DNA of 29,344 nucleotides from a virus, in the IMG/VR virus record IMGVR_UViG_3300003323_001383; one strand, 5' to 3'. The position numbers and the translations under genes are program-made. Under the pieces are notes generated by a model. It was not told the origin of the DNA. It did no database searches and saw only the letters and a program-made list of their open reading frames with translations. Numbering within the stretch: position 1 is the first letter of the stretch; each line of letters opens with the position of its first letter. Positions 28 through 26,271 of this stretch are shown here, piece by piece.

Positions 28-405
28 TCACGACTCCATGACCGCGAGGAGGAGCTCCAGCCTCCTCATTTTCTCGGACGAGAGGGCGTCCAGTATGGCC
101 TCCTCCTCGATGAACGGCTCGTGCTGGGAGTCCGAGCGGAGGCGGGAAGAGACGATCTGGGCCGCCTTCTCGTCCGAGACGCGCTCGCTGACGAGGTCGT
201 AGCCGTCGTTCCCGTTCGGGGTCGGCGTCCTCCTCCACCAGGAGCCGCCCTTCCAGTCGACGCAGCTCTCGGCCGACAGGAGGCGGACGCCGAGCCTCTC
301 GGCCTCCAGGGTGAGCCACTCCCCGTCGTCGGACGGGTCGACGTGGAGCTCTATCGGGTCCGTCGAGGAGATGCCGTCCACGACGTCTATGGAGAGGATT
401 CTCAC
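28..405 (-). CDS. hypothetical protein; GTG start abutting tRNA-Glu; C-terminus ...LLLAVMES
   Basis: 125-aa ORF; reverse complement of 28-60 encodes LELLLAVMES*; a member of the recurrent VME[S/T]-terminal set. Confidence 0.5.
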   Translation of the reverse strand: MRILSIDVVDGISSTDPIELHVDPSDDGEWLTLEAERLGVRLLSAESCVDWKGGSWWRRTPTPNGNDGYDLVSERVSDEKAAQIVSSRLRSDSQHEPFIEEEAILDALSSEKMRRLELLLAVMES

Positions 406-477
406 GGCCCGTTCTTCTAGCGGCTAGGAAGACGCCCTTTCAAGGCGTTAACGCGGGTTCGATTCCCGCACGGGTCA
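406..477 (+). tRNA. tRNA-Glu(TTC)
   Basis: acceptor ggcccgt/acgggtc (one G-U), anticodon arm acgcc-cTTTCaa-ggcgt, T arm gcggg-ttcgatt-cccgc. Confidence 0.85.
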
Positions 478-485
478 CAGCTTAC

Positions 486-557
486 GCCGGCTTAGCAATC
501 CAGGGAATGCACGCGCTTCGTAAGCGCGAGAGGCGGGTTCGAGTCCCGCAGCCGGCT
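486..557 (+). tRNA. tRNA-Thr(CGT)
   Basis: acceptor gccggct/agccggc, anticodon arm cgcgc-ttCGTaa-gcgcg, T arm gcggg-ttcgagt-cccgc. Confidence 0.8.
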
Positions 558-573
558 CTCTGTAATTTCGGAC

Positions 574-984
574 GTGGTCAAGTCGCTAGTGGACGAGACG
601 GAGAGGTTCCTGGACGTCATGGGGTCCTCCGGGGTGTTCGTCCTCGCCAGGATCCCCTGCCCCGACGGCGACCCCGTCGAGGTCAGGCTCATCCGGCGAA
701 AGGACGGGTCGGGGTTCGCCATGACGGTCAAGAGGGGCGAGGCGGGCCTCCTCTCGGACTACTGGCCCGCGTACGAGCACGGCTCCTGGTTCGTCAGCGA
801 CCTGACGGACAAGGACGGGAGGGTGACGACGATCCGGGGGCTCAGCCCCGAGCGTGTCGCCCAGTACGTCCACGAGGACGCGAAGAAGGCGGGGGTGGAG
901 GTCGACCGCCTAGCCCTCGCCGAGGCCATCTCCGACGAGATGATGCTCCGAATGTCGGCCGTCGCCGACGTCCTCCTGAGCTAG
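574..984 (+). CDS. hypothetical protein (136 aa, GTG start)
   Basis: ORF immediately downstream of the tRNA pair; no recognisable motif. Confidence 0.45.
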   Translation: MVKSLVDETERFLDVMGSSGVFVLARIPCPDGDPVEVRLIRRKDGSGFAMTVKRGEAGLLSDYWPAYEHGSWFVSDLTDKDGRVTTIRGLSPERVAQYVHEDAKKAGVEVDRLALAEAISDEMMLRMSAVADVLLS

Positions 985-1682
985 CACTGGTTCCAGCTCA
1001 TCCCGTGGAGGAACCCGTGCCACCCGTCGACCGCGATGGAGCCGGCGCCGGCCGCGCAGGTGTGGCCACCCTTCCCGACGTGCAGGGTCCCGTCCTCCGG
1101 GCTCCCGGAGATGACCCAGCACCGGTGGGTCTTCTCCTCCCTCATGGTGCAGTTGGACGCCCGTCCGCAGACGTCCCAGTCCACGCCGTTCGGGGTCACG
1201 CCGCGGAGGTGCCTCCCGTCGCAGTTGTCCCAGGCCCAGCAGTGGCCCGGCTCGTGCGAGTCTGACCAGTAGACGTCGCCGGGCTCCGGGCGCCCCGAGG
1301 GCGTGTCGAAGAGCTTCGACGAGGAGACCTGGCGGTTCACTATCTCCCCGGACTGGCCGACCTCCGAGGGGGTCGAGGAGGGAGGGACGGGCGCCCCGCA
1401 ATGGTCGCACTTCGTCGGCCATGCCTCTTCGGGGAAGTCGCCCTCCTCCCCGAAGGACTCCGGGACGGCCTCGGGGAACAGGTAGTCTCGGATGACGGCA
1501 GTGGCGTTGTGGCCGCCGGAGTGGCCCCGCCCGTAGGCGTTCGGGCAGGTGTTCTGGTAGTCGTACCTCGGGTGCCCCTCCGGGCACTGGTCGCACGGAG
1601 CGACGGAGCTGACGATGGCCCGGTCCCAGTAGACGCGGAGCTCGGAGCGCACGCCGACCCTTCGGATTAGCCTGGCCTTCAT
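981..1682 (-). CDS. hypothetical Cys/His/Trp-rich protein (~233 aa from the MKARLIRR start)
   Basis: minus-strand ORF inside 981..1799; many C/H/W residues (CDQCPEGH, CDHCG, HCWAWDNC); function not recognisable, the start is uncertain. Confidence 0.4.
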   Translation of the reverse strand: MKARLIRRVGVRSELRVYWDRAIVSSVAPCDQCPEGHPRYDYQNTCPNAYGRGHSGGHNATAVIRDYLFPEAVPESFGEEGDFPEEAWPTKCDHCGAPVPPSSTPSEVGQSGEIVNRQVSSSKLFDTPSGRPEPGDVYWSDSHEPGHCWAWDNCDGRHLRGVTPNGVDWDVCGRASNCTMREEKTHRCWVISGSPEDGTLHVGKGGHTCAAGAGSIAVDGWHGFLHGMSWNQC

Positions 1683-1720
1683 GCGGAGGCCGCCCGATAG
1701 GAGGTGTACTCTCCTCGAAT

Positions 1721-2927: not shown

Positions 2928-3497
2928 TTAGAGGACGAAGTCCTCCGCCAGGGCCTCCCGCAGGCGCGAGATGGTCCGGGCGTGTATCTGCGAGATGCGG
3001 GGCTCGGACACGCCGAGCTCGGCCGCTATGGAGCGATAGTCCACGCCGTGGACGTGGTGGGAGACGAAGATGTGGCGCTCGCGCCACGGGAGGAGGTCGA
3101 CGAGTTCCCAGACCTTCGACAGGGCGAGGGCCGCCGCGGTCCTTGCCTCGACGTCGTCGCCCGACATTGCGTCCTCGAGCGACCTGTGCCCGGAGTCGAC
3201 GAGGACGTGGACCGCCCTGTCCGGGTCGCCCTTGGCCCTCATGCGGTGGTGCCTCGGCATCCAGTCCTTCGTCCGCAGGTCGTCCTTTATGGCGCCGCGG
3301 ATCCTTATCCTCGCGTAGGCCCCGAAGTTCTCGCAGTCGGGGTGGAGGCGCGCCGCGTCCCAGAGGCCGGACATCGCGGCCGCGTGGAGGTCGTCGTACA
3401 TGATGTGCGCCGGAAGGCGCCGCTTGAACCCGAGCGCGATGCTGCGGGCGAGGTGTGCGTGGTCCTTCATGAGGATCGAGACGCGATACTCGTTCAC
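2928..3497 (-). CDS. RNA polymerase sigma factor, FliA/WhiG (sigma-28) family
   Basis: region-2-like RLPAHIMYDDLHAAAMSGLWDAARLHP...YARIRIRGAIKDDLRTKDWMPR parallels the E. coli FliA region RLPASVDVDDL...ASWRIRGAMLDELRSRDWVPR; C-terminal region-4 HTH DYRSIAAELGVSEPRISQIHARTISRLRE. Confidence 0.85.
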   Translation of the reverse strand: MNEYRVSILMKDHAHLARSIALGFKRRLPAHIMYDDLHAAAMSGLWDAARLHPDCENFGAYARIRIRGAIKDDLRTKDWMPRHHRMRAKGDPDRAVHVLVDSGHRSLEDAMSGDDVEARTAAALALSKVWELVDLLPWRERHIFVSHHVHGVDYRSIAAELGVSEPRISQIHARTISRLREALAEDFVL

Positions 3498-3753: not shown

Positions 3754-4035
3754 GTGTCGTCAGCGAAGGTCCAGGTCGTGGTCGTCGACCACAGGAGAAA
3801 GAGGAGGGAGGGATCCGGGACCCTCGGCGTCCTCCTCGTCGAGTACCCCTACTCGGCGTACGTGCTCCAGAACCCCGCCATCAGCGGGCGCGGGAACACG
3901 GAGGAGGAGGCCGTGGAGGCCGTAAGGAAGGCCCTCCTGACCGTAGACAAGTTCGACCTCGGCAAGGAGTCCCGGAAGGTCGTCGAGCTCGACATCGCCG
4001 ACGAGATGACGGTCCGCGACGTGATGGAGGGATAG
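3754..4035 (+). CDS. HicB-like / UPF0150-family small protein; C-terminus ...RDVMEG
   Basis: GVLLVEYPYSAYVLQNPAISGRGNTEEEAVEAVRKAL resembles the HicB antitoxin fold (Y-x-A-x-V-P...G-x-T-x-E-E-A); the start (GTG at 3754) is uncertain. Confidence 0.5.
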   Translation: MSSAKVQVVVVDHRRKRREGSGTLGVLLVEYPYSAYVLQNPAISGRGNTEEEAVEAVRKALLTVDKFDLGKESRKVVELDIADEMTVRDVMEG

Positions 4036-4036
4036 G

Positions 4037-4642
4037 ATGGACGACTCGGAGATCAAGGTTACGCCGGCCCAGAGGCTGGCCGCCCAGGTGCTGGACGCCT
4101 TCACCCGGAAGGACGTCCCGGGCCTGGAGGACATGGACCCGAAGGACCCGTTCGCCGTCATGACCAAGGCGAGCGAGTCTCTGTTCACGCTCACGATGGA
4201 CCTCCTGAGGCGCTCCGGCGGACCGGTCGGGGAGATGTGCTCCTACGCCTGGGACGTCTTCCACCACGGCCACGTGCAACTTGCGGTCGGGCCCGAGGTC
4301 CCGTCCCTCCACGTCGCCATCGTCGGGACGGCCAAGGAGGCCCGGTGCCTCGTGTTTGTCCCCCACGGTTGGCCCGACATGATCAAGGAGGCGCCCCTCA
4401 TGCAGGCGGGGGCCATCGTCTTCACGGCGTCCCAGGTCGTCGACTTCTACAACGGCATGTACCCTCCGAAGACCCCGTCCTCCAGGATCCAAGAGCGGGC
4501 GTCCGCCTTCGAGGCGGAGTTCCTGAGGGACGCCGACATCTCCTCCCTGAACGAGTACCAGAGGGGCGTCGTGGCGAGGAACAAGCCGGGAGGCCTGGCG
4601 AAGATGACCTACGTCCGCCGGCCGATGGCCGGGAAGAACTGA
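4037..4642 (+). CDS. hypothetical protein (201 aa)
   Basis: ATG preceded by ggaggga; overlaps the previous stop (ATGGAGGGATAGGATGG), suggesting translational coupling. Confidence 0.6.
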   Translation: MDDSEIKVTPAQRLAAQVLDAFTRKDVPGLEDMDPKDPFAVMTKASESLFTLTMDLLRRSGGPVGEMCSYAWDVFHHGHVQLAVGPEVPSLHVAIVGTAKEARCLVFVPHGWPDMIKEAPLMQAGAIVFTASQVVDFYNGMYPPKTPSSRIQERASAFEAEFLRDADISSLNEYQRGVVARNKPGGLAKMTYVRRPMAGKN

Positions 4643-4705: not shown

Positions 4706-6730
4706 ATGAACAACGAGAGCATGGGGGCGGCCGAGACCATCGTCCAGTCCCTTCTGTCCCACGCGGACCACATGTACCACAACCGTCCCGGCGTCGTCGT
4801 CGCGGACGCCCGCTTCAAGGTCGGGGTCCGTTGGGAGTACGTGACGCACCGCGAGAAGTGCCGGACCCACGAGGACGACCCGGTGAGGCCGGAGAAGGAC
4901 GCCGAGGGCAAGAAGACCGGCCGCCTGCTCTGCTCCAAGTGCCAGTCTGACGTCCGGGGGAACGGCCACAGGATCGTCTACCGGAAGGTCAAGGTCGGCA
5001 AGAAGGAGGAGGAGCAGAAGGTGGGCTACCTCGGCCCCGACGGGAAGGACGTCCTCGGCCCGAACGGGCAGAAGGTCGCCGAGTACCGCGAGGCCGGCGT
5101 CTTCCCCGAGATCGCCGTCTGGATGTACGAGCAGGTCGCGAAGGTCTGGGAGCTCGACAACGAGTTCGCCGCCCGCTGGGCGTCGCACGCGTTCGGCGAG
5201 GACCACAAGGACCGGGCCGTGATCATGGCGGCCTTCATGCTCGTCCAGTCCCGCAAGGGGGACCCCGTCCGCGAGGACGGCAAGGTCCTGTTCCACGACG
5301 ACGACTTCCGGGACGTCGGCGAGGCCATGGTCCTGCACCTGAAGGACAAGAGGAAGAAGGACGAGCGCGAGATCTCCCCGCGCATGCTCCTGCGCATTCA
5401 CGAGGTCCTGTCGCTCGACGGGATCGCGGCGGTCAACCGGCGCCTCGGCTTCGGGGTCTCCGCCCGCAGGCCGCCCTTGGGCCGCTGGGCGAAGGCCGTC
5501 GAGAAGTGGCTCCTCTACCGGGAGGAGAACCCGAAGATGCTGGAGGGCCTGGTCAAGTCCGGGCAGAAGTCGACCGTCGTCGAGCTCTGCAAGCGCGTCG
5601 GGTACAAGCCCGCCTCGCCCAGGTTCTTCGAGATCCTCGGCGTCCGGCAGAAGCAGGCGCCGGACGGCAGGCGCACGGTCGCCATCGGCCTCGACATCAG
5701 GTCCGGCGGCTCGTGGGAGGGCATGAGCGAGGAGCAGATCTGCGAGGCGATCGTCAGGGACAAGGTCGGCTACAAGCGGGTGGCCGGCATGGTCCCCAGG
5801 TCCGTCGGCGTCACCCGCGCCGTCATGGCCGCGACGATCGAGGCCGGGGGCGTCTCCGACAAGGAGATGATCATCCTCATGCCGACCCTCGAGGAGCTCG
5901 GGCTCCTGGACGTCCCCTCCGTCAAGGAGAGGATCGAGCGCGCCGTCAAGGGCGCGGACGACATGCGCGCCGCGAACGTCGCGGCCCGGATGCGCTCCCA
6001 GGAGGCGAAGGAGAAGCTCCAGGAGGCCTCGGACAACGCCCTGAAGAAGGCGGTCGAGGAGGTCATGAAGGACATGCGCGCGTACATCCTAGTCGACAAG
6101 TCGGGCTCCATGGAGGGCGCGATCGAGGCGGCGAAGGGATGCGTGACGAAGTTCCTCCAGGGCTTTCCGCCCGAGCGGGTCCACGTGGCGTACTTCGACG
6201 CCGTCGGCCGCGAGGTCAGGATCCCGCACCCGTCCGCGGCCGGGGTCGCCAAGGCCTTCTCCGGCATCACGGCCGGAGGCGGGACCAACTACGGCCAGGG
6301 CGTCCTCGCCCTGAGGGACCACGTCCCGAAGGACGAGGAGGACGTCGTCATGATCTTCATCGGCGACGAGGGCCACGGGATCGGCCGGCTCATCAGGCTC
6401 GGCGAGGGCGACCACCCGTCGTTCGCCGCCGACGTCCAGAGGTCCGGCCTGCGGCCGATGGCGTTCGGGCTCATCCCGATCGTCTCGAAGAACCCGCAGT
6501 TCCCGCGCGGCAACTCCGTCCGGAAGACGGCCGCCGAGCTCGGGATCCCCTGCTTCGAGATCGGCGAGGAGACCTTCGCCGACCCCTACGCCATCCCGAG
6601 GACGATCAGGAACATCATCGCGGCGACCCCGGTCACCGCGAGGGCGACGGCCGCCCCGGTCCGGCGGCAGACCCTGGTCGAGGTCATCATGAAGACCGAG
6701 CTCCTCCGGAAGCCCGCTTGGGCAGCCTGA
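4706..6730 (+). CDS. Ro60/TROVE-like protein with a C-terminal von Willebrand A (vWA) domain and an N-terminal Cys-rich extension
   Basis: AAGGAG RBS 10 nt upstream of the ATG; the C-terminal YILVDKSGSMEG (MIDAS DxSxS)...ITAGGGTNYG...VVMIFIGDEGHG...IPCFEIGEETF...IRNII parallels the human Ro60 vWA region VDVSASM...AGGTDCS...VFIVFTDNETF...CGFDTGALDVIRNF; the N-terminal 130 aa contain CSKCQSD...GHR. Confidence 0.65.
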   Translation: MNNESMGAAETIVQSLLSHADHMYHNRPGVVVADARFKVGVRWEYVTHREKCRTHEDDPVRPEKDAEGKKTGRLLCSKCQSDVRGNGHRIVYRKVKVGKKEEEQKVGYLGPDGKDVLGPNGQKVAEYREAGVFPEIAVWMYEQVAKVWELDNEFAARWASHAFGEDHKDRAVIMAAFMLVQSRKGDPVREDGKVLFHDDDFRDVGEAMVLHLKDKRKKDEREISPRMLLRIHEVLSLDGIAAVNRRLGFGVSARRPPLGRWAKAVEKWLLYREENPKMLEGLVKSGQKSTVVELCKRVGYKPASPRFFEILGVRQKQAPDGRRTVAIGLDIRSGGSWEGMSEEQICEAIVRDKVGYKRVAGMVPRSVGVTRAVMAATIEAGGVSDKEMIILMPTLEELGLLDVPSVKERIERAVKGADDMRAANVAARMRSQEAKEKLQEASDNALKKAVEEVMKDMRAYILVDKSGSMEGAIEAAKGCVTKFLQGFPPERVHVAYFDAVGREVRIPHPSAAGVAKAFSGITAGGGTNYGQGVLALRDHVPKDEEDVVMIFIGDEGHGIGRLIRLGEGDHPSFAADVQRSGLRPMAFGLIPIVSKNPQFPRGNSVRKTAAELGIPCFEIGEETFADPYAIPRTIRNIIAATPVTARATAAPVRRQTLVEVIMKTELLRKPAWAA

Positions 6731-6738
6731 GGCGCACG

Positions 6739-7095
6739 ATGTCGAGGAGGATGGGGCGGGAGCCCCTCCCCTCCCCGGTGTCGCACCGGTCCTACCTCGC
6801 CAGCCCGGCGTTCGGGCTGGCAAGGTCGGGCCGCAGCATCTTCTCGGTCCCGAAGAGGGGGCCGCTCTTCTACGCCGACTTCGAGGCGACGGAGCTCCGG
6901 ATGATGGCCTCCCTGGGCCTCTTCAGGTTCCCGTGCCCCGCCTGCGGAGACCCGCTCCTGGCGAGCGCCCGCTCCGGACGGAGGTCGATGGGGTACCCGC
7001 ACGACCTTGCCGGAAGCCAGGACGACATCCTCGTCCAGCACGCCCTGAAGAAGGGGGACCCCGAGCACGGCGTCCTCCTCGTCATGACGGCGTAG
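6739..7095 (+). CDS. hypothetical small protein with a CPACG motif
   Basis: ATG 9 nt after the previous stop; the same frame extends far upstream as a GC artefact, so support is weak. Confidence 0.3.
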   Translation: MSRRMGREPLPSPVSHRSYLASPAFGLARSGRSIFSVPKRGPLFYADFEATELRMMASLGLFRFPCPACGDPLLASARSGRRSMGYPHDLAGSQDDILVQHALKKGDPEHGVLLVMTA

Positions 7096-7146
7096 GGTTC
7101 CCCGTGCTGCCCGGCTTTCGAATACGTGGCCCCGGCCCCTGACCTC

Positions 7147-7220
7147 CCGCCGGTAGCTCAGCGGTCACGAGCACGCGCCTTATAAGCGTGGGGTCGGTGG
7201 TTCAACTCCACCCCGGCGGA
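7147..7220 (+). tRNA. tRNA-Ile(TAT), a rare UAU anticodon that decodes AUA
   Basis: acceptor ccgccgg/ccggcgg, D arm gctc-agcggtcac-gagc, anticodon arm cgcgc-ctTATaa-gcgtg, T arm ggtgg-ttcaact-ccacc. Confidence 0.7.
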
Positions 7221-7264
7221 CGAAGCAGGCGGAGATGGCGCGCCCTCGGGCGTAACGTCGTCCC

Positions 7265-7338
7265 GGGCCCATCGTCTAAGTGGTTAAGGCCCCCGGCTCA
7301 TAACCGGGTAATTCTCGGTTCGAACCCGAGTGGGCCCA
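7265..7338 (+). tRNA. tRNA-Met(CAT)
   Basis: acceptor gggccca/tgggccc, D arm gtct-aagtggtta-aggc, anticodon arm cccgg-ctCATaa-ccggg, T arm ctcgg-ttcgaac-ccgag. Confidence 0.85.
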
Positions 7339-7364
7339 CTCCCGGCGCGGCCGGGGAAGAAATC

Positions 7365-7658
7365 ATGACCAAAACAAAGCTAGTTCAGGCGCTCTCGGAA
7401 CAGAACGACATCACCCGGGCCCAGGCCAAGGGGATCCTCGACAGTCTCTACTCGATCGCGGAGAACGCGCTGAGGGAGGAGGGGTCGTTCACCCTCCCGG
7501 ACGTCGTGAAGCTGACCCTGAAGGACGTCCCGGCGCAGCCGGAGCGGCAGACGATCAACCCCTTTACCAAGCTTCCTCACACCTCGCCCCCGCGCCCGGC
7601 CTCGAAGAAGGTGAAGGCGTCGCCGGCGGCGACCATCAAGAAGGCGTTCCAGAAGTAG
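7365..7658 (+). CDS. HU/IHF-family nucleoid-associated DNA-binding protein
   Basis: MTKTKLVQALSEQNDITRAQAKGILDSLYSIAENALREEGSFTLPDV...NPFT matches the HU fold signature (MNKTELI..LSK.QAK.ALE.....I...L..G..V.L.GFG.F); ggggaag RBS. Confidence 0.8.
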   Translation: MTKTKLVQALSEQNDITRAQAKGILDSLYSIAENALREEGSFTLPDVVKLTLKDVPAQPERQTINPFTKLPHTSPPRPASKKVKASPAATIKKAFQK

Positions 7659-7661
7659 GGC

Positions 7662-8648
7662 ATGTCCTGGCGGGACCTGCTCCAGAAGGAGGACGAGAGC
7701 CTCGTCCTCCCGTGGACCGGAGGGAGGACCGTCCTCTCGCCGGGCCCCGCGTACCAGATGCAGGGTCCGAAGCCCAGGGAGCACGGGTGGAAGGCTTTCC
7801 AGATAAAGGGAAGGAACGCCTTCCACGTCGGCCCGTCGGACCCGGAGGTCTCCGTCCTCGGAAGGCGCGTCACCGGGTACCTCGTCGGGGACCGCGTGGT
7901 CCCCGACGGGACACGGGTGGCCTCCGGCTACGATGGGATAATCTACTCCTCGGAGGCGGTCCACCTCCTCGAGCCCGGGATCGCCAGGTTCGCCAGGGTG
8001 TCCGCCGGCCGCGTCGCCGACGGGGCGCCCCTGGTCTTCGTCTCGGAGGAGATGCCGCTCGGGCCCGAGCAGGACGTCCTCGCCGCGTTCCAGGACCGGG
8101 CCCCGAACCTGGACGGGATCCGCGACGTCGAGCCAGCGCTCTACGCGGCCTTCGTCCTGGAGGTCGGCCAGAGGGCGTCGGCGGAGAAGGCCAGGGCCGA
8201 GCTCGAGGCGCAGCGCGCCCTGGAGGCCGCCCAGGCGGCCGAGAGGGAGCGGATCGGGAGGCTCGTGGAGCAGCTCTCGGACGCGCGCGGGAGGCGCGAG
8301 ATGGCGGCCTACGACTTCGCCCAGGCCGCGTCGGCGGCGCTGACCCTGGCGGAGGCTGAGTACCTGGACCACCGGGCGTCCGCCAACCGAGGGGAGATGG
8401 TCGTTACCTTCCGCCTCGAGGGGCGGAGGTTCGAGTGCGTGTGCGACGCCAGGACACTCCGGATCGTCGACTCGGGCATCTGCCTCGTCGACCACAGGAC
8501 CGGGGTCCGCGGCGACGACCGTTTCACCCTCGAGTCGCTCCCCGGCGTCATCCGCCTGGCGATGAGGACCGGCAGGCTTCACGTCTTCCGCCGGGTCGAC
8601 GACGACTACGGCGAGCGGGAGCACGATGACGACGACTACGACGACTAG
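7662..8648 (+). CDS. hypothetical protein (328 aa) with an acidic DDDYDD C-terminus
   Basis: ATG 4 nt after the HU stop; coiled-coil-like Ala/Glu/Arg-rich middle. Confidence 0.6.
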   Translation: MSWRDLLQKEDESLVLPWTGGRTVLSPGPAYQMQGPKPREHGWKAFQIKGRNAFHVGPSDPEVSVLGRRVTGYLVGDRVVPDGTRVASGYDGIIYSSEAVHLLEPGIARFARVSAGRVADGAPLVFVSEEMPLGPEQDVLAAFQDRAPNLDGIRDVEPALYAAFVLEVGQRASAEKARAELEAQRALEAAQAAERERIGRLVEQLSDARGRREMAAYDFAQAASAALTLAEAEYLDHRASANRGEMVVTFRLEGRRFECVCDARTLRIVDSGICLVDHRTGVRGDDRFTLESLPGVIRLAMRTGRLHVFRRVDDDYGEREHDDDDYDD

Positions 8649-8649
8649 G

Positions 8650-9021
8650 ATGTCGAAGAAGACCTACAACGAGCGCCTGAGGGTCCTCATGGAGGTGACG
8701 GCCGCGAGGGCCGGGACGGCGGGTTTCAGCGTCGTGGTCCCGCACGCGAGCCCGAAGGAGGTCTGGCGGCTCGACGGGAAGGACATCCGGGACGTCAAGG
8801 CGAGCCTCTCCGGCATGGCCGAGCTCCAGTCCGACCAGGAGTGCGACGAGTGCCTCGAGCTCCTTCCGAGAGGGCACACGGTCGCCGGGAAGGTCATCCT
8901 CTGGGAGAGGGACGGGGGCATACTCCAGTCCCGGTTCCACTGCACCTGCATCCCCTGCTTCGTCCAGGACCGCGGGGGCTACCTGTCCTCAGCCGTCGTC
9001 GCGCTGGTCATGGAGACCTGA
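8650..9021 (+). CDS. hypothetical Cys-containing protein; C-terminus ...VALVMET
   Basis: ATG directly after the previous TAG; CDEC...HCTCIPC cysteines; ends gtcatggagacctga. Confidence 0.55.
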   Translation: MSKKTYNERLRVLMEVTAARAGTAGFSVVVPHASPKEVWRLDGKDIRDVKASLSGMAELQSDQECDECLELLPRGHTVAGKVILWERDGGILQSRFHCTCIPCFVQDRGGYLSSAVVALVMET

Positions 9022-9045
9022 CGCGGGCCGGCGTAACGTCCCCGC

Positions 9046-9390
9046 ATGGACAACGACGAGTGCCCGTCGCGGACGACCTACAACGAGCCGATCCGGCACG
9101 TCGGCAGAGCCAGGACGGCGACGAAGCTGGCGATTCTGGCCATCGCGGCCGCGGCCGTCCTGCTCGTGGTCTTCGCGGAGCGACAGCCGAACCCGAGGAA
9201 GGAGCACGACAAGTACGTCTCCGAGCGGCCGGCCTGGAAGGGCCGGGAGTGGAGGGAGACCGAGGCCGTCCTCTTCGAGGACCCGGGCCACCCCCTCACC
9301 TATCACGTCTGCACCTTCCGGGGGTGCGGGCACTACTTCGAGGACAAGACGGGGACCGACATGGCTCCGGGAAACGGGCAGAAGGAATGA
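9046..9390 (+). CDS. hypothetical membrane protein with one TM helix
   Basis: hydrophobic stretch LAILAIAAAAVLLVVF; its stop overlaps the next start (ATGA). Confidence 0.55.
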   Translation: MDNDECPSRTTYNEPIRHVGRARTATKLAILAIAAAAVLLVVFAERQPNPRKEHDKYVSERPAWKGREWRETEAVLFEDPGHPLTYHVCTFRGCGHYFEDKTGTDMAPGNGQKE

Positions 9391-9791
9391 GCATCGAGGA
9401 CGCGGCGGTCGTCGGCAAGGACGGGACCGTGGTCTACTGGCACTCCCCGGAGAACAGGTCGTACGGGTTCATCCCCGACTCCAGGAAGCTCTGGGACGTC
9501 ATATGGGAGGGGAGGGCCTCCATCGACGGGATCGCCCACACTCACCCGGGCAGGGGCTACCCGAACCCGTCGAAGACGGACCTGACGACCTTCGAGGCCG
9601 TCGAGAAGGGCATCGGGCGCCGCATCAAGTGGTGGATACTGAGCGCGGACTCCTCGGTCCTCCTCGAGTGGAGCGACGAGTTCTCCGGAGGGTACGACGT
9701 CACCAGCTACATGACCGTGGAGCGAGAGCCGGGGTGGATGGCGGCCCTCAGGGCCCGCTCTTTCCCGGAGCTCCAGGCCGCGCCCGCGTAG
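9387..9791 (+). CDS. JAB/MPN(+) JAMM-type metalloprotease-domain protein
   Basis: IAHTHPGRGYPNPSKTD fits the JAMM motif H-x-H-x(7-8)-S-x-x-D (compare RadC HNHPSGDPTPSQAD), with an upstream WEGRAS glutamate; ATGA overlap with the upstream gene. Confidence 0.6.
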   Translation: MSIEDAAVVGKDGTVVYWHSPENRSYGFIPDSRKLWDVIWEGRASIDGIAHTHPGRGYPNPSKTDLTTFEAVEKGIGRRIKWWILSADSSVLLEWSDEFSGGYDVTSYMTVEREPGWMAALRARSFPELQAAPA

Positions 9792-9799
9792 CGCGGCCC

Positions 9800-10522
9800 A
9801 TGTCGCTGGACTGCATCATATCCGTCACCCCGAAGGCCCGAGGGAGGGCCAGGAAGACCGTGAACGGGCCGGTCTCCCGCTTCATCCGGGACGACGAGGA
9901 CTACTACCAGGCCGTCCTCAAGCACCTCAAGGAGTGCAGGGTGTGCGACCCCGCGGAGGCCCTCCGGGGGTTCCTGAAGAACCGGCGGGCCGAGAAGTTC
10001 GGTGGCAGGGTCTCGGGCCTCCTCCTCAACATGGCGGCCAAGTACGTCAAGAACTTCCGCCACCGCGGCGAGGAGATCGACGCCCTCTACAGGGAATACC
10101 TCGTCGGGCATTTCTCCAGCTTCCACGACCTCGAGGAGGCCAGGGGTCTGACGGTCGAGGAGGTGCGCCGGGCCCACTCGATGTACATGACCCGGCACGA
10201 GCGGGAGGTCCGCCTCGCCCTCGAGTCGGAGGCCGGCCCGAAGGAGAAGAAAAAGCGCGCGGAGCCGCACCCGTTCGACGAGGCGCAGAGCCGCATGGGG
10301 TGGAAGGACGAGGTCTGGCCGAGGGAGGCCCTCGGCCGCATCGTCCCGGTCGATCTCCAGTTTTACGCCTCCCTCTCCGAGGAGGAGGCGGAGGACCTCG
10401 GCCCCTACCCCCTCGCCGTCTGGCTCGTCACCCGCCACAGCTGGGAGACGGCCATCCGGGAGGAGTCGGTCATCGCGGAGTACGCGAGGCTCCAGCTCGC
10501 GCAGAACGTCATGGACTCGTGA
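9800..10522 (+). CDS. hypothetical helical, charged protein (240 aa); C-terminus ...AQNVMDS
   Basis: lies between the JAB and E1-like genes; N-terminal Cys residues (DCIIS, ECRVCD); I see no E2 HPN motif. Confidence 0.55.
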   Translation: MSLDCIISVTPKARGRARKTVNGPVSRFIRDDEDYYQAVLKHLKECRVCDPAEALRGFLKNRRAEKFGGRVSGLLLNMAAKYVKNFRHRGEEIDALYREYLVGHFSSFHDLEEARGLTVEEVRRAHSMYMTRHEREVRLALESEAGPKEKKKRAEPHPFDEAQSRMGWKDEVWPREALGRIVPVDLQFYASLSEEEAEDLGPYPLAVWLVTRHSWETAIREESVIAEYARLQLAQNVMDS

Positions 10523-10559
10523 GGGTCCGAGTGTAGCGATAGTGGAAGGAGACACGAAA

Positions 10560-10847
10560 ATGGTAGACATCGTTCAAGTTGGAGGAGGGTTCGTCGGCCC
10601 GAACGAGGCGAAGGTGAACCTTTCCTGGGGAGGGCAGAACTACGACCTCTCCAACCCGGTCCCCCTGGACATCACGGACGCGGACCTCAAGGGCGTCCTA
10701 TCCGAGGTCATCCGCGCGGGCGGCGACGGCATCCCGGCGGACCAGGACGTGGGCCCGATGGCGAACTTCGTCGTCGAGCGGCTCGGCCCGACGGCGAGGC
10801 GCCCGCACAACCTCATCATGGTCCAGCCGAAGACCGAGTTCGGCTGA
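10560..10847 (+). CDS. small protein ending ...KTEFG; candidate beta-grasp / ubiquitin-like partner of the adjacent E1
   Basis: 95 aa; ggaaggagacacgaaaATG RBS; alternating beta/alpha-like pattern; terminal Gly just before the stop; sits immediately upstream of the E1-like gene. Confidence 0.45.
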   Translation: MVDIVQVGGGFVGPNEAKVNLSWGGQNYDLSNPVPLDITDADLKGVLSEVIRAGGDGIPADQDVGPMANFVVERLGPTARRPHNLIMVQPKTEFG

Positions 10848-10893
10848 GGAGGCCGGCCCCGGAGATCCCGGGGCCGAGCCCTTAGGGGTCAGG

Positions 10894-11466
10894 ATGAAGA
10901 AGGTCACGATCGTCGGCGCCGGGGCCCTGGGCTCTCACCTCGTCATGCTGCTTCGGAACCACGCCGACATGAAGGTCGTGGACTTCGACCGCATCGAGAC
11001 GAAGAACACGATGTCCCAGCTCCACGGCAAGAGCACGGTCGGGAAGAACAAGGCAAAGTCTCTCCAGCAGACGATGCTCTTCCTGTTCGGCACGAGGCTC
11101 GAGGCGGTCCCGCACCGGCTCGAGCCGTCGAACGTCAAGGAGCTCCTCGAGGGCTCGGACCTCGTGGTCGACTGCGTCGACGACGGGCCGACCCGGAGGG
11201 TCATCCAGGCGTTCTGCGTGGAGAGAGGGATTGCGTGCCTGCACGGGGCGCTCTCGGCCGCCGGGGCAGACTTCGGCCAGGCCCGGTGGACCGAGGAGTT
11301 CACAGCCCACGACCGGACGGAGGGCGCGCCGACCTGCGAGGACGGCGAGCATCTTCCGTACATCGCGAAGGCCTCGGCGCAGCTCGCCATCGCGGCGCAG
11401 GACTTCCTGCGCGACGGCTCCAAGCGCGGGTTCCTCGTGCAGCGGGGCCCGGTCAAGGAGATCTGA
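10894..11466 (+). CDS. minimal E1-like adenylyltransferase (ThiF/MoeB/UBA superfamily)
   Basis: VTIVGAGALGSHLVMLL...VVDFDRIETKNTMSQL nucleotide-binding motif, then DLVVDCVDDGPTRRVIQAFCVERGIACLHGALSAAGADFGQ; only 190 aa. Confidence 0.8.
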   Translation: MKKVTIVGAGALGSHLVMLLRNHADMKVVDFDRIETKNTMSQLHGKSTVGKNKAKSLQQTMLFLFGTRLEAVPHRLEPSNVKELLEGSDLVVDCVDDGPTRRVIQAFCVERGIACLHGALSAAGADFGQARWTEEFTAHDRTEGAPTCEDGEHLPYIAKASAQLAIAAQDFLRDGSKRGFLVQRGPVKEI

Positions 11467-11553
11467 GGATTGACGGCGGTACGTCCGCCGGTGTAAAGTA
11501 ACGACGTCAGCAGCGAGACGCCAAGCGTCTCCGGGACCAGAAGGTCCCTCTCG

Positions 11554-11682: not shown

Positions 11683-11717
11683 CACGCCGGGCCTTCCGGC
11701 GTAAGATCGCAGAGTTC

Positions 11718-11851: not shown

Positions 11852-11880
11852 CCAGAGGCGTTCAGCGCGGCAAAGCACAC

Positions 11881-17583: not shown

Positions 17584-17847
17584 GTGCGGTGCCTCATCGG
17601 ACGATGCCGGAGGAAGGTGTCCCGTTGGTGGAGGATCGACTCCGCCGACGGGACCTTTCTCACCGCGTCCTGCGGCGTCTGCGGCCCCATCGTCAGCACG
17701 AGCGTCCTCGACAGCTCGGGGGTGACGGCGGTGAGGGAGATAGAGTACGGGGACTTCCTGGCCGCCGAGGTCATGGAGGCGGAGCCCGTCCTCGTGGGGA
17801 GCATCCTGGTCGGGAACGGCCGGATCATGTACGGGCCCCAGCCGTAG
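17584..17847 (+). CDS. hypothetical small protein (87 aa) with an internal AEVMEA motif
   Basis: ORF only; competes with an overlapping frame (17589..18053). Confidence 0.3.
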   Translation: MRCLIGRCRRKVSRWWRIDSADGTFLTASCGVCGPIVSTSVLDSSGVTAVREIEYGDFLAAEVMEAEPVLVGSILVGNGRIMYGPQP

Positions 17848-18784: not shown

Positions 18785-19017
18785 GGCTCTGCGGGACCAA
18801 GGGCTGCGGCGCCGAGGCCGTGCGCTTCTTCCTCATGACGGGGGCGATCAAGGTCCTCGCGATGACGTGCGAGGACTGCGCCCGGTTCACGGGGCCCGAG
18901 TACACGCCGGTCACGGTCCTCGTGGAGGAGATCGGGGAGGGCGAGCTCGCCGTGCTCGAGGTCATGGAGATTGAGACGGTGCGAGGCTGGACGCCGGGGG
19001 CGCAGCCTCGCACCCGA

Positions 19018-19088
19018 TAGGGAGTCGTCTAAAGGCAGGACATCGAGCTTTGGACTCGCGAATGGGGGTTCGAGTCCCTCCTCCCTAA
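19018..19088 (+). tRNA. tRNA-Gln(TTG)
   Basis: acceptor tagggag/ctcccta, D arm gtc-taaaggcag-gac, anticodon arm tcgag-ctTTGga-ctcgc (top pair mismatched), T arm ggggg-ttcgagt-ccctc. Confidence 0.6.
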
Positions 19089-20580: not shown

Positions 20581-21036
20581 TCAGTCGCTCATCACCTGGT
20601 TGACGATCAGGAAGTTGTGGACGAACTCGGCGAGGTCCTTCGCCTCCTTGACGCCGAAGAGCCGGTGCTGGGGGCAGACCACGAAGTTCAGGCGGTCGGC
20701 GATCCTCACCAGGCGGGGGAACGTCGTCCGGGAGTTCGCCCCCTTCTTCGGGAGGGGCTGCTCCTTCCAGTTCCTCCCCATCGTCCTCCACGTCCCCTCG
20801 GGGACGGGGCTGTCCGGAGTTGTCAGGTGGGAGTAGGACCACCGGATGTGGACGGTGCGGCTCGTGGCCTTCAGGAACCCGAGCTCCACGGAGTGCTCCT
20901 CCTCACGGACTATCCCGTCGGAGCCGACGACCTTGGCCGTCACGATGACGGTCTTGTCCCATCCGTCCCCCGTGAAGGACGGGGTCCCGATGGAGATCCT
21001 GTAGGGGACGTCGCTCGCCTTGAGCTCCGGCCTCAT
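20581..21036 (-). CDS. hypothetical protein (151 aa); C-terminus ...FLIVNQVMSD
   Basis: minus-strand end caggtgatgagcgactga encodes QVMSD*; the start overlaps the upstream gene's stop (ATGA). Confidence 0.55.
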   Translation of the reverse strand: MRPELKASDVPYRISIGTPSFTGDGWDKTVIVTAKVVGSDGIVREEEHSVELGFLKATSRTVHIRWSYSHLTTPDSPVPEGTWRTMGRNWKEQPLPKKGANSRTTFPRLVRIADRLNFVVCPQHRLFGVKEAKDLAEFVHNFLIVNQVMSD

Positions 21037-22689: not shown

Positions 22690-23214
22690 ATGGGCGCAAC
22701 CGGCTATAACCCCCTTCAACAGATGGTCCCGTCCGGGCCGTCGGGTCCCTTCGGGATCCCTGTCGTCATGAAGGCATTCCCGGAGGAAGGACACGCCGTC
22801 CTGGAGGAGCTCGTCCTGACGGACAGGCTGAAGGTCCTCCTGAAGGCCCGGGCGAGATACCAGGCCGTGGGCTCCCTTCAGTTCATGCCGAGCGCCTCCG
22901 CCGTCCTCGTGGAGAGGAGGGAGGACGGGACGACGAGCGAGAGGGAGATCGCCAGCATGACCATGCCGGAGATCCTGGGCCTTCCCTCCACGTCGCTGAT
23001 GTGGCAGAACATCGTCCTCTACCTGGAGACGGCCCACAAGCTCTCGGTGAAGGAAGACAAAGGCAAGATACGGGACGCCTGCGCGGCGGCCGGGAAGGCG
23101 GCGATGAAGTTCACGGCCACCCTCATGGCGGACGTCGCGATGGGCGTCCTGAACGACGAGGATATGGCCGAGGCCAAGGACTCGGCAGTAGTGTTGCAGG
23201 TCATGGAGACCTGA
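22690..23214 (+). CDS. hypothetical protein (174 aa); C-terminus ...VVLQVMET
   Basis: ends gtcatggagacctga. Confidence 0.55.
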   Translation: MGATGYNPLQQMVPSGPSGPFGIPVVMKAFPEEGHAVLEELVLTDRLKVLLKARARYQAVGSLQFMPSASAVLVERREDGTTSEREIASMTMPEILGLPSTSLMWQNIVLYLETAHKLSVKEDKGKIRDACAAAGKAAMKFTATLMADVAMGVLNDEDMAEAKDSAVVLQVMET

Positions 23215-23495: not shown

Positions 23496-23999
23496 ATGGA
23501 GCCAATCGAGCTCGTGCGCGGCATCCGGGTCGAGAGCGTCCGCGTGGGCGCCCAGACGATGAAGGAGGTCGACCCGAGCAGGCCGGGCTCCCTCCGGCGC
23601 GGATCCACGATCTGCCACTACAACGTCACCGTCGTCTACCCGAACGGGCTGAGGAAGAACCTGTCCACGGCCTGGGACGGACTCGGAAGGAAGGTCGCGA
23701 GGGCCGTGGGGCTCAGGCTCCAGGGGAAGGCCGCGCTGGACGCCGCGCTCGAGGCGAACCGGATCGTGTTCGCGGCCGTGGAGGCCTTCCGCCAGTCGCC
23801 CGCCTGCGCCGACCTGGAGGGGAAGGCCCTGGCGGCCGAGCGCCGGAAGCTGCAGAGGCACGACGAGAGGGAGGCCGAGGCGCAGAGGAGGCGGGACGTC
23901 AACGAGATCAAGCGCTGCCTCCGGAGGACCTTCCTGACGGAGGAGCAGGTCCTGGACCTCTGGAGGGAGGCCCAGGTCTCCGAGGTCATGGAGTCCTGA
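23496..23999 (+). CDS. hypothetical protein (167 aa); C-terminus ...AQVSEVMES
   Basis: ends aggtcatggagtcctga, the same 17-mer as at 25763-25779. Confidence 0.55.
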   Translation: MEPIELVRGIRVESVRVGAQTMKEVDPSRPGSLRRGSTICHYNVTVVYPNGLRKNLSTAWDGLGRKVARAVGLRLQGKAALDAALEANRIVFAAVEAFRQSPACADLEGKALAAERRKLQRHDEREAEAQRRRDVNEIKRCLRRTFLTEEQVLDLWREAQVSEVMES

Positions 24000-24401: not shown

Positions 24402-24410
24402 TCCGCCACT

Positions 24411-25040
24411 CTACACTCTGGAAGATGAATCGCCCGTGGGGGCGAGCCCGGTTGCTGCCCGGTGCGGACCTTCGGGTCTGGAGATCGAGCCTCCCGTCTT
24501 CCTCCACTGCCATCCACCCGACCAGCCTTCAAACAATCCTTTGAGACGCGCCTCCCTGACAGCAGGGACGATCAGCATCCAGGCTTGATAAGGCATATCT
24601 TTCCGTATATAGTTGCATCGGACGCAGGAGGGGATGACATTCGATTGGAGATGTCCGATGTCGTTATCGATCCTGTCCAACGTCATGCGACCCTCGGTCT
24701 CCAGGCAGTACGCGCAGCCACCCGATATTCGTTCTCGGATGAAATCAGCAGTCAGGTCGTTCTCCCGGCCTCGCCTCCTATCACCTTTTCTGGAATCTAT
24801 GAGAATAAATTTCTCAGGATTCAGGTTCTGAGACCTAGCCTCTCTTATCAAAGAGTTGATCCGGTCTTTCCCCGACCTGGTCCTCTTCCGAGGTGTTTTC
24901 TTATATCGAGCCCCGCGACCCTTCCCGTCACATTTCCGGCATATACTACGAGGCTTGCCGTACATCACCCTCATCAAGGATGGTTCTTTCTCCTCCCCGC
25001 AGGCCTTACATTTGATCTTTTGCGGAATAATGTCCGACAT
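24411..25040 (-). CDS. HNH endonuclease with an N-terminal Cys-rich (CxxC...CxxC) zinc-finger region; encoded mostly in a low-GC island
   Basis: KCKACG...CRKCDG zinc finger; GGCAYCLETEGRMTLDRIDNDIGHLQSNVIPSCVRCNYIRKD is the HNH core; GC drops sharply across ~24530-25100. Confidence 0.7.
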   Translation of the reverse strand: MSDIIPQKIKCKACGEEKEPSLMRVMYGKPRSICRKCDGKGRGARYKKTPRKRTRSGKDRINSLIREARSQNLNPEKFILIDSRKGDRRRGRENDLTADFIRERISGGCAYCLETEGRMTLDRIDNDIGHLQSNVIPSCVRCNYIRKDMPYQAWMLIVPAVREARLKGLFEGWSGGWQWRKTGGSISRPEGPHRAATGLAPTGDSSSRV

Positions 25041-25100
25041 CACTTCGACTTCCGCAATAGGAAGTCTCTCGCCTCCGCCTTTCCGCCGTAATCTCCGACC
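24411..25100 (-). mobile_element. putative homing-endonuclease insertion (low-GC island carrying the HNH gene)
   Basis: the only extended low-GC stretch in the window coincides with a freestanding HNH endonuclease gene. Confidence 0.35.
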
Positions 25101-25499
25101 ATGGATCCCGACCTATGCTTCATACCCGATGTCAACATCGACGATGACGATGCGGGGGAGGCGGACCGCCGCCTGGCCTACCTCCGGTCCATCATCCGGG
25201 AACGTAGGCAGGACGGGGACTGCGCCTGGTCCTTCGGGTTCGACTTCAGCGGGTCGAACCACGCGCACGGGATCGTGTACGTGGTCGACTCGCGCCCCGG
25301 GTCCACCCGAGTGTGGGAGCTCTCGAAGAAGCACGAGGAGTGGAACGGCACGCCGAGGGCCGGAAGGAGGAGGTTGTCGATGGAGCCCCCGCCTGGCCAG
25401 CAGGTCGCCCACGTCCCGAAGGGGCTGTTCCAGCTCGAGGCCGAGGACCTCGTCGCGGCCATGGCGGAGATCATGGCCGGACGGATCTTCGATGCGTAG
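25101..25499 (+). CDS. hypothetical acidic protein (132 aa)
   Basis: ATG ORF starting at the edge of the low-GC island. Confidence 0.45.
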   Translation: MDPDLCFIPDVNIDDDDAGEADRRLAYLRSIIRERRQDGDCAWSFGFDFSGSNHAHGIVYVVDSRPGSTRVWELSKKHEEWNGTPRAGRRRLSMEPPPGQQVAHVPKGLFQLEAEDLVAAMAEIMAGRIFDA

Positions 25500-25779
25500 C
25501 TGGTTCATCGTCCACCCGCTCTGGGACTGCGCGACGATGATGGCCGAGTACCACGGAGGGCGCGCTGAGGTGTTCGTCGAGTATCGGGACACCCCGTGGG
25601 AGGGGGTGAGGCCCTTCCGCATCCAGGTCGGGGAGTTCGACGGCCTGGAGATCAGGGCGTTCAACGAGATGCAGGAGAGCCTCAAGGACGTCAGGGAGTC
25701 CGCTGGGGAGGAGGGCTGGAAAAGGTTCATGGAGGAGCTCCGCAAGGCGTTCGTGATGGCCGAGGTCATGGAGTCCTGA
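25492..25779 (+). CDS. hypothetical small protein; C-terminus ...KAFVMAEVMES
   Basis: an ATG overlaps the previous stop by 8 nt (an alternative ATG lies at 25537); ends aggtcatggagtcctga. Confidence 0.45.
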   Translation: MRSWFIVHPLWDCATMMAEYHGGRAEVFVEYRDTPWEGVRPFRIQVGEFDGLEIRAFNEMQESLKDVRESAGEEGWKRFMEELRKAFVMAEVMES

Positions 25780-25872
25780 CAGCCGGTTGACGGAGGACGC
25801 CCGAAGGCGTAGAATGGCCGCATGAGAGAAAGGAGGTGCGCGATGCGGATCACAGCCTGAAGGAGGCCCCAT

Positions 25873-26271
25873 ATGAAGAAGCGCAAGCAAAGAGCGCGCC
25901 CAACGAGGCGCGTCCATAACCTGTACGTGCACGTTCTGACCGGCTCGTCGTCGATCATGTCGTACATGCACTACAGGATCCAAGACGTGTCCGTGGCCCG
26001 GCAGATAATGGCCCTCACCTTCGCCCGGGAGTGGGGAGGCAGGTCCGGCATCGACGTCAAGAGGCTCGAGGGCATCGTCGTGCGCGGACCGGTCCCCGAG
26101 GTCATCGCTCGCTACGCCAAGGAGGTCCCGGGAGCGAACCTGCGCCGCATCACGAGGGCGGTCGTCAGGACGGGCGACGTCCGCGCGATGAGGGTCCTCG
26201 CCGGCGTCCCGGGCGTGGACCGGGCCTACCTGGAGAACGCCATCGTCGTGGCGGAAGTCATGGCCGTCTGA
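25873..26271 (+). CDS. hypothetical basic protein (132 aa); C-terminus ...IVVAEVMAV
   Basis: ATG ORF; N-terminal MKKRKQRARPTRR. Confidence 0.5.
   Translation: MKKRKQRARPTRRVHNLYVHVLTGSSSIMSYMHYRIQDVSVARQIMALTFAREWGGRSGIDVKRLEGIVVRGPVPEVIARYAKEVPGANLRRITRAVVRTGDVRAMRVLAGVPGVDRAYLENAIVVAEVMAV

Follow-up and report, generated by a model that had tools for sequence, protein, structure and literature searches.

A recurrent C-terminal peptide on unrelated small proteins of huge phages as a putative docking tag

In the 29,344-nucleotide virus sequence IMGVR_UViG_3300003323_001383 from IMG/VR (29.3 kb, 67% G+C; the whole stretch is hereafter called the window), our curated gene list holds ~49 mostly small genes interspersed with tRNA genes, and 13 of these (~27%) encode proteins that end in the same short peptide, V-[M/L/I]-x-x, immediately before the stop codon. 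Herein we describe this ending, which is held in a fixed register to the chain end, is conserved as protein rather than as DNA, and recurs in related huge phages on proteins that are for the most part unrelated to each other. We consider it reasonably probable that this ending serves, at the level of the protein, as a C-terminal docking tag for a single common partner, while its specific role as a sorting or encapsidation signal is a more tentative proposal.

Recurrence and register of the motif in the window

An earlier note on this stretch, made from the sequence alone, had listed ten genes whose products end in V-M-x-x, and the list of open reading frames (ORFs) and the codon view returned every one of these C-termini exactly as written there. 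An eleventh V-M gene, absent from that list, lies at 6739-7095 (...VLLVMTA), and two V-L variants were found at 574-984 (...ADVLLS) and 12147-12506 (...ACVLSS), the homologues of which end in V-L-x-S or V-M-x-S in relatives. The proportion of about a quarter of the ORFs given in the note therefore stands. The 13 carriers are listed below, where labels such as L005 denote related loci that are described in a later section.

28-405, minus strand: carrier, 125 aa, ...LELLLAVMES; paralogue of 574-984
574-984, plus strand: carrier, V-L variant, 136 aa, ...SAVADVLLS; L005 orthologue ...LCDVLCS
3754-4035, plus strand: carrier, 93 aa, ...MTVRDVMEG; orthologues DVMEE (L005) and DVMNG (L006)
6739-7095, plus strand: carrier (P0121), 118 aa, ...HGVLLVMTA; just downstream of the vWA gene
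8650-9021, plus strand: carrier, 123 aa, four-Cys protein, ...AVVALVMET; orthologues VMES, VMGT, VIEA, VLGA
9800-10522, plus strand: carrier, 240 aa, ...LQLAQNVMDS; between the JAB and ubiquitin-like genes
12147-12506, plus strand: carrier, V-L variant, 119 aa, Cys-rich, ...AAACVLSS; L008 orthologue ...VRCVMSS
14618-14953, plus strand: carrier, start uncertain (possibly 14711), ...VLLVEHVMES; L005 orthologue ...LLLVEHVMES
20581-21036, minus strand: carrier, 151 aa, ...FLIVNQVMSD
22690-23214, plus strand: carrier, 174 aa, ...SAVVLQVMET; tRNA-Ser begins 7 nt past the stop
23496-23999, plus strand: carrier, 167 aa, ...EAQVSEVMES
25492-25779, plus strand: carrier, 95 aa, ...KAFVMAEVMES
25873-26271, plus strand: carrier, 132 aa, ...NAIVVAEVMAV

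Counting back from the last residue (-1), V-[M/L/I] begins at offset -4 in 13/49 window genes and at every other offset between -10 and -2 in only 0-3. The pair VM at -4/-3 occurs in 11/49 genes against an expectation of 0.0026 per gene (binomial P=1e-18), so that the strong enrichment claimed in the note is borne out. A test that is free of gene calls, in which the distance to the in-frame stop was taken for GTNATG sites in all six frames, placed 11/56 sites of the window exactly four codons from a stop; in the 197-kb genome of Virus Rctr197k the same count was 7/327, flat across offsets and with 0 in real genes (Fisher p=4e-6). The endings are true C-termini, given that the coding signal (G+C at third codon positions >0.9) ends at the motif and that a tRNA or the next gene follows 1-100 nt on. 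Stop-codon recoding was considered and ruled out because TGA, TAG and TAA are all in use as carrier stops.

Anatomy of the motif and predicted structure

A profile of 46 carriers, combined with a position-by-position enrichment test, gave the consensus [L/V/A/I]-[V/A/I]-x-[D/E]-V-[M>L,I]-x-x-COOH. Position -8 is L/V/A, -7 is V or A in 41/46 carriers, -5 is D/E, -4 is V, -3 is M with L/I as variants, -2 is rich in E (with D, G, A, S, K and others also seen), and -1 is S/T/A/G. By this profile, the motif is eight residues long rather than the V-M-x-x first described, and it tolerates L or I at the M position. Residues -8, -7, -4 and -3 are predicted to form one hydrophobic helix face. An AlphaFold2 model of 28-405 (pLDDT 76) shows a beta domain and three helices, the last covering residues 110-124 of 125, and in a single-sequence AlphaFold2 model of 25492-25779 (pLDDT 66) the C-terminal helix covers residues 65-94 of 95; in both, the tail lies in a terminal helix that extends to the penultimate residue. 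A Foldseek search of the 28-405 model against the PDB returned nothing significant.

The motif in relatives and its phyletic spread

A megablast search with the window matched no cultured phage, and its sole GenBank phage relative is Virus Rctr197k. Syntenic relatives (L005-L010) were reached via homologues of the window's vWA protein, and their proportions of V-[MLI]-x-x ends among called genes, together with vWA identity to the window, were as follows.

L005: vWA identity 80%; 8/30 genes
L006: vWA identity 70%; 8/22 genes
L007: vWA identity 65%; 15/39 genes
L008: vWA identity 64%; 10/34 genes
L009: vWA identity 56%; 5/25 genes, mainly V-I or V-L
L010: vWA identity 55%; 0/21 genes
Rctr197k: vWA identity ~50%; 0/177 genes

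In L005-L009 the neighbouring offsets hold ~0-2 genes each. Pooling the genes of the window and these relatives gave 59 carriers among 199, and the tabulation of C-termini in relatives that the note had proposed as a check found VM in 47/199 genes where 0.52 would be expected (P=2e-76). A vWA alignment used as a query retrieved 80 metagenome loci, 18 loci in metagenome-assembled genomes (MAGs) and 69 IMG/VR loci (contigs 200-620 kb). The extended pattern appeared in more distant loci (mainly L112, L173 and L015-L017), with 13 cases in the correct register versus 0-4 at other offsets, and the motif-positive loci occupy one part of a neighbour-joining vWA tree. Many of the MAGs with vWA-module loci were binned as Myxococcota, and distant vWA-module relatives in GTDB genomes (L092-L109) are likewise mostly Myxococcota (Kofleriaceae, Polyangia, Polyangiaceae, Myxococcales). 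These bin assignments, all from distant relatives, are our sole indication of a host and may hint at host range or may reflect mis-binning by composition.

Scanning the DNA of all IMG/VR for E-V-M-E-S-TGA yielded 68 stretches, 15 of which are exact matches on one contig, IMGVR_UViG_3300032782_000001 (436,316 bp, 49% G+C); a 427-kb contig has 4, contigs of 393, 193 and 63 kb have 2 each, and the remainder are singletons. E-V-M-E-S-TAA gave 76 stretches with a maximum of two per contig, which is chance level. On the contigs with multiple TGA matches the register is kept, with 10, 9 and 2 cases at the right offset and 0 elsewhere. A sample of 94 kb of the 436-kb contig contains 58 ORFs with the C-terminus [V/I]-[M/H]-x-x, a density that is biased upward because the loci were retrieved by motif match and the ORFs were called by a greedy caller. 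These 58 endings are tighter than those of the window's clade, with V/I at -7 in 55/58 and S at -1 in 54/58. Positions 31374-69346 of this contig (L291, L305, L266, L276, L316) form a tightly packed 38-kb array of ~40 co-directional small carrier ORFs with C-termini [V/I]-[M/H]-E-S. By eye, from sequence motifs, DNA-ligase-like, CYTH-like and PLD-nuclease-like genes were seen among the array ORFs. The motif is kept across phages of 49-68% G+C and belongs to a whole group of huge phages and not to the window alone. No description of it was found in the searchable literature.

Conservation acts on the protein and not on the DNA

The note had argued that the ending is selected as protein and is no DNA repeat, and the relatives agree with this in that third codon positions are free and nothing is conserved 3' of the stop. 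Conservation is confined to codon positions 1 and 2, whereas third positions track genome bias; the motif Val codons (GTC 34, GTG 9, GTA 2, GTT 2) match genome usage (Fisher p=0.44), and the bases past the stop carry an information content of <0.35 bit per base. Swaps between homologues are conservative at M/L/I while the last two residues vary, as in VMES, VLDS and VLAS, or in VMET, VMGT and VIEA, with ends such as TA, SA, ES and GT. Among C-terminus-aligned homologue pairs that contain a carrier, the motif is present in both members in 35/35 and no pair is mixed. The same retention is seen in single families. A profile of the 28-405/574-984 pair matched just 7 small homologues among 1.84 billion representatives, all 7 ending in V-[ML]-x-x, and only six columns of this family (21-39% identity) are invariant, V(-4) and S(-1) among them; in the 8650-9021 family V at -4 is among 12 invariant columns; and the orthologues of 6739-7095 in L005-L009 end in VMSA, VMES, VMGT, VMES and VMEA, respectively. 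The homologue search with 6739-7095 matched the protein itself only.

These data bear on the alternative that the conserved element is a nucleic-acid signal at gene 3' ends, such as a terminator, a motif that promotes recombination or shuffling, a site of RNA processing, or the ribosome-binding site of the gene that follows. In its favour, GTCATGGAGTC is recurrent and has GGAG within it, and at 4021-4037 it acts as a Shine-Dalgarno sequence for the next gene; in the 436-kb phage, 27/58 carriers have a stop that shares ATGA with the following start codon; and the promoter/stem-loop elements called PeSLs show that shuffled phage ORFs can be bordered by conserved DNA motifs (PMC4122927). Yet the changes M to L/I and V to I alter bases and keep the chemistry, the conservation by codon position and the unconserved bases past the stop are those of a peptide, the downstream context is varied (tRNA genes, convergent genes, gaps of 1-100 nt), stop-codon use in the window's clade does not set carriers apart from other genes, and in the ATGA overlaps GGAG lies 2 nt from the ATG, too close for a ribosome-binding site. 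Codon, swap and flank evidence together exclude a DNA repeat, a PeSL-type shuffling element, a terminator and a ribosome-binding site as a general cause, and we regard the nucleic-acid alternative as largely refuted and very improbable.

Three narrower candidates at the DNA level were rejected as well: a Shine-Dalgarno role of the embedded GGAG holds at 4021-4037 alone, restriction or methylation sites (GANTC, CATG) are missing from some motif copies, and a three-codon mini-ORF M-x-x-stop has no ribosome-binding site upstream.

Two further genes of the window carry the full motif upstream of their actual stop, and both have GAG, one base from TAG, at the position where the stop would be expected.

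17584-17847, plus strand: probable stop-loss derivative; ...FLAAEVMEA (V at 17770), GAG, then a 21-residue G/P-rich extension
18835-19020, plus strand: probable stop-loss derivative; ...LAVLEVMEI (V at 18961), GAG, then a 15-residue extension into tRNA-Gln

A third case comes from the orthologues of 3754-4035, where L006 (9915) has ...GTC ATG AAC GGA TAA and L007 (9918) has ...GTC ATG AAC AGA TGG, so that the TAA has become TGG and the L007 frame reads on through conserved former intergenic DNA. All three apparent losses (17758-17847 and 18949-19020 in the window, and L007) fall directly after V-M-x-x (GAG, GAG, TGG) and lead into short G/P/R-rich extensions that are translated from what used to be intergenic DNA. 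The L006/L007 pair and the two window copies imply that the stop after the tag is occasionally lost.

The carriers are mostly unrelated proteins

Relatedness was assessed with the last 9 aa removed, by phmmer clustering and by profile-profile (HH) comparison. The 59 carriers of the window and its relatives fell into 32 phmmer families with only 4 HH links at >=50% probability, all joining syntenic orthologues or close paralogues, and the 58 carriers of the 436-kb phage, likewise trimmed, remained 58 singletons. The description of the carriers as unrelated thus holds for most of them and needs amending for some paralogues, e.g., 28-405 (minus) and 574-984 (plus), which share 27% identity and stand divergently across a tRNA-Glu/tRNA-Thr pair. 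The profile of this pair also gave weak matches to large proteins of repetitive sequence, which we regard as spurious. Pfam and PHROG matches are absent from all carriers, as against 12/36 non-carriers of the window that have one (p=0.02), and the seven largest carriers of the 436-kb phage have no Pfam domain. Compared with the products of other genes, carriers are a little shorter and more acidic (median 114 vs 132 aa, isoelectric point 5.7 vs 6.6; p ~0.01), a difference that lacks the power to separate mechanisms.

Common descent would offer a different account, in which the tail is the relic of one ancestral C-terminal helix mini-domain that was spread by duplication and recombination and is kept for folding or self-association, with no reader involved. 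Some carriers are indeed paralogues (28-405/574-984; an RCSE...VM group), in several families the helix begins at a CxxC or HxxC knuckle that is zinc-ribbon-like, and arrays of carriers are typical of gene-family expansion. Against this stand the family counts after trimming, where a single paralogous family would show homology outside the tail; the sizes of 38-316 aa; and the dissimilar N-terminal parts, which include four-Cys and Cys-free types as well as, in the two models, a beta sheet followed by helices. Moreover, a structural helix alone gives no reason for ending exactly two residues past V-M. We consider descent from one mini-domain improbable, though less so than a nucleic-acid signal.

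The conserved gene module and the receiver as candidate readers

The recognisable neighbours of the carriers include a conserved module and several regulators.

2928-3497, minus strand: sigma factor
4706-6730: vWA protein, 674 aa
7365-7658: HU
9390-9791: JAB protease
10542-10847: ubiquitin-like protein, C-terminus ...TEFG
10894-11466: ThiF-type E1
14132-14539: CheY-like receiver, stand-alone

The module (4706-11466 in the window, and loci L005-L178) consists of the vWA protein, a 328-aa protein, the JAB protease, the ubiquitin-like protein and a small ThiF-type E1; no E2 was found in it. The 328-aa protein has an acidic, aromatic-containing tail (...DDDDYDD), the ubiquitin-like protein ends in ..K-T-x-F-G, sometimes with one residue more, and the vWA protein always ends in ...KP(A/E/S)WAA. 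The earlier note had raised the possibility that the JAB protease or the E1 acts on the tails. In 49 loci outside the window's subclade, the flanks of which show no motif enrichment, the vWA and 328-aa genes are nevertheless present in 49/49 and the JAB, ubiquitin-like and E1 genes in 43/49, so that the module neither requires nor predicts the motif and is unlikely to be its reader. In addition, the carriers have no Gly-Gly end of the kind expected of ubiquitin-like modifiers or E1 substrates, and the ubiquitin-like protein itself ends in ...TEFG. The note's broader reading therefore survives in part: of the explanations left, a common recognition signal is the best, and action of JAB or E1 is disfavoured.

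By contrast with the module, the carriers, the sigma factor, HU and the receiver were found in the window's subclade only (tblastn E<=1e-5, sampled loci), which raises the alternative that the tag docks to a regulatory hub, with the CheY-like receiver, the phage sigma factor or a chaperone as candidates. CheY binds short terminal amphipathic helices of FliM and CheZ, and no other protein is as well conserved as the receiver between the window and L005 (87%) and L008 (85%; the vWA protein has 80% and 64%), as would be expected of a hub. The co-occurrence comes from a handful of 10-20 kb loci, however, identity of the receiver falls to 57% in L007 and 47% in L009, and dozens of distinct ligands would be unusual for one signalling hub. 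Docking to such a hub seems to us unlikely, if somewhat less so than common descent.

A proposed docking and sorting role

The fixed register, the amphipathic face, the many unrelated ORFan carriers, the strict retention of the tag within families while the remaining sequence drifts, its absence from all recognisable enzymes and regulators, and its span of 49-68% G+C make a short docking tag the simplest explanation. In the mechanism that we propose, the tag would form the last two turns of an amphipathic helix with its hydrophobic face at -8, -7, -4 and -3, and V-M would be followed by exactly two small or acidic residues and then the free carboxylate. A putative common reader would probably recognise the hydrophobic face plus the chain end, and would thereby bring a shifting set of accessory or effector proteins to a single place, which may be the prohead, from which they would be injected along with the DNA, or some other assembly that the phage builds. 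Sorting is ranked first among the possible roles because, in known biology, large unrelated sets of proteins with a shared terminal peptide are the cargo or effectors of one machine. In its boldest form, which we put forward tentatively, huge phages (~190-440 kb contigs, probably with Myxococcota-like hosts) would run their own protein-sorting system, in which a C-terminal 'zip code' (..Φ-V-x-E-V-M-E-S-COOH) on possibly at least 100 unrelated small effectors per genome is bound by a phage-encoded receptor that loads the capsid or another phage-built compartment.

Several points weigh against sorting and encapsidation. Any reader is putative, as are its identity and what becomes of the carriers once bound. 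No capsid, scaffold or portal gene was seen beside the carriers, and the Rctr197k terminase, used as a query for structural-gene regions, had no match on the motif-positive contigs. The carriers sit among tRNA genes and regulators (sigma factor, HU, CheY-like receiver), surroundings that look like an early or accessory rather than a late region. The ~58 carriers in 94 kb of one genome far exceed the handful of proteins with the T4 capsid-targeting sequence (CTS), and the tag fits no known encapsidation consensus. Finally, both structure models are of moderate confidence only, and a hydrophobic helix face packed in the carrier's own fold would favour a structural role.

Some of the same observations would suit a C-terminal degron, in which the tag hands its carriers over to a host protease (ClpXP, Lon or FtsH) or to an adaptor or protease of the phage, whether for the timed clearance of many early accessory proteins or for the swamping of host proteolysis. 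C-degrons such as ssrA typically keep a fixed spacing to the free C-terminus, the carriers are small ORFans amid regulators and tRNA genes, and retention of the motif across phages of such different G+C fits a universal host protease as reader. The terminal residues are polar or acidic (E/D, S/T/G), though, unlike the non-polar LAA-type ends that ClpX or Tsp recognises; the motif is missing from sister phages that share the core module, which is unexpected for a universal host protease; and the motif-positive loci showed no protease gene, the only ClpP lying in the motif-negative L010. We rank the degron second, as a doubtful but serious alternative to sorting or encapsidation, and the regulatory hub third.

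If the tag is a sorting or recognition signal, a simple sequence rule would single out a functionally linked set of dozens of ORFans in uncultivated huge phages, where almost no gene otherwise has an assignable role. The tag peptide would also be a handle on the reader, as bait or as a query for complex prediction, and could possibly serve as a portable tag to load or control proteins in engineered phages.

Other features of the window

Further recognised products of the window are a phosphatase, two HNH nucleases, Hsp20, a Nudix protein and a PilZ protein, and a 4.6-kb ENA contig from a root metagenome is identical to the corresponding part of the window. tRNA genes are very dense, with 34 ARAGORN calls of which 27 were confirmed by Rfam, plus one extra tRNA from Rfam at 11881-11952. 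This extra tRNA is flanked by spacers at 11467-11880 (414 nt) and 11953-12146 (194 nt), in which there is no convincing ORF and no Rfam match. An ARAGORN tRNA-Gly on the minus strand at 6959-7044, inside gene 6739-7095, is unsupported by Rfam and probably false, while the last 10 nt of 12147-12506 (12497-12506) overlap the 5' end of tRNA-Arg(CCT). A tRNA T-arm-like sequence, GGTTCGAGTCC, occurs twice (1935-1945 and 2800-2810), in the spacers 1683-2083 and 2759-2927, where neither ARAGORN nor Rfam calls a tRNA; these spacers may hold decayed or overlooked tRNA genes. Copies or near-copies of a repeated intergenic motif, CCGGCGTAACGTC, stand at 7247, 9028, 14115, 17257, 17860 and 25083, ~17-26 nt upstream of gene or tRNA starts. 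It is weakly enriched (27 matches with <=3 mismatches vs 16.5 expected, 27 being reached in 1/100 shuffles), may be a promoter or leader element, and has no link to the carriers.

Comparison with known systems

At the level of DNA, the closest parallel is with PeSLs, intergenic promoter/stem-loop elements that border unrelated small ORFs in the hyperplastic regions of T4-like phages (PMC4122927). Like the tag, they are short and conserved, and are met repeatedly where many unrelated small ORFs of variable regions begin or end; the conservation of the tag, in contrast, is in amino acids inside the ORF, and the conserved intergenic DNA that defines PeSLs is lacking (<0.35 bit per base past the stop, free third positions). 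Among peptide signals, the beta-clamp motif, the I-x-I motif of small heat-shock proteins and PDZ ligands were rejected since their patterns do not match the tag; PDZ ligands have a hydrophobic last residue and key positions 0 and -2, whereas the key residues here are the fourth and third from the end and the final one is small or polar.

ssrA-type tags end in non-polar LAA. Such C-degrons resemble the window's tag in being short, functional only at a free C-terminus and read by a common machine, and differ from it in that its last two residues are acidic or small (-1 S/T/G/A, -2 mostly E/D), its key residues are -4 and -3, and it is genome-encoded on many genes.

Cargo of encapsulins carries a loading peptide with a consensus of the G-S-L-x-I-G-S-L type. 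The tag, with [LVA]-[VA]-x-[DE]-V-M-x-x, has another consensus, and shares with the encapsulin peptide that it is C-terminal and conserved across different cargo-like carriers, its binding here being putative. In encapsulins the C-terminal peptide suffices to load unrelated cargo into an HK97-fold shell, and the cargo gene adjoins the shell gene (PMC7355545); no shell gene was found in the window or its relatives. C-terminal targeting tails are also known for prohead proteases, in HK97 and, as a proposed C-terminal propeptide, in SPN3US (PMC7411985). Compared with both groups, the tagged proteins here are far more numerous, and no shell, scaffold or protease gene was seen beside the carriers.

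The CTS of T4 offers a phage precedent. It is the only feature common to diverse, fast-changing internal defence proteins (PMC3012670) and directs internal proteins into the prohead (PMC7411985). The likeness to the window's tag is that, as in IPI-III and Alt, a short terminal peptide alone unites diverse small phage proteins. The T4 CTS is an N-terminal propeptide of about 10-20 residues that is cleaved off, on a handful of proteins, and prohead proteases of the gp21 type cleave after Glu in L/I-x-E. Where -2 is Glu, V-M-E|S resembles this hydrophobic-x-Glu context, and it fits in 21/46 clade carriers and in 37/58 carriers of the 436-kb phage, -2 being otherwise varied. The window's tag differs in lying at the extreme C-terminus, fixed to the chain end, with no N-terminal propeptide, and in marking dozens of proteins. 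As a sorting signal it would operate on a scale well above that of T4, covering ~27% of the window's genes and ~40 ORFs in the 38-kb array of the 436-kb phage.

On this scale the comparison is with the Dot/Icm type IVB secretion system, where hundreds of unrelated effectors carry a loose C-terminal signal in which acidic residues go with a hydrophobic one at -3 or -4. The Dot/Icm signal is a degenerate one of a bacterial secretion system, whereas V-M is nearly invariant in the tag and is found in phages; the two would be alike in placing a large and diverse effector set under one signal. Should the proposed 'zip code' system exist, it would be the phage equivalent of the effector signal of a secretion system.

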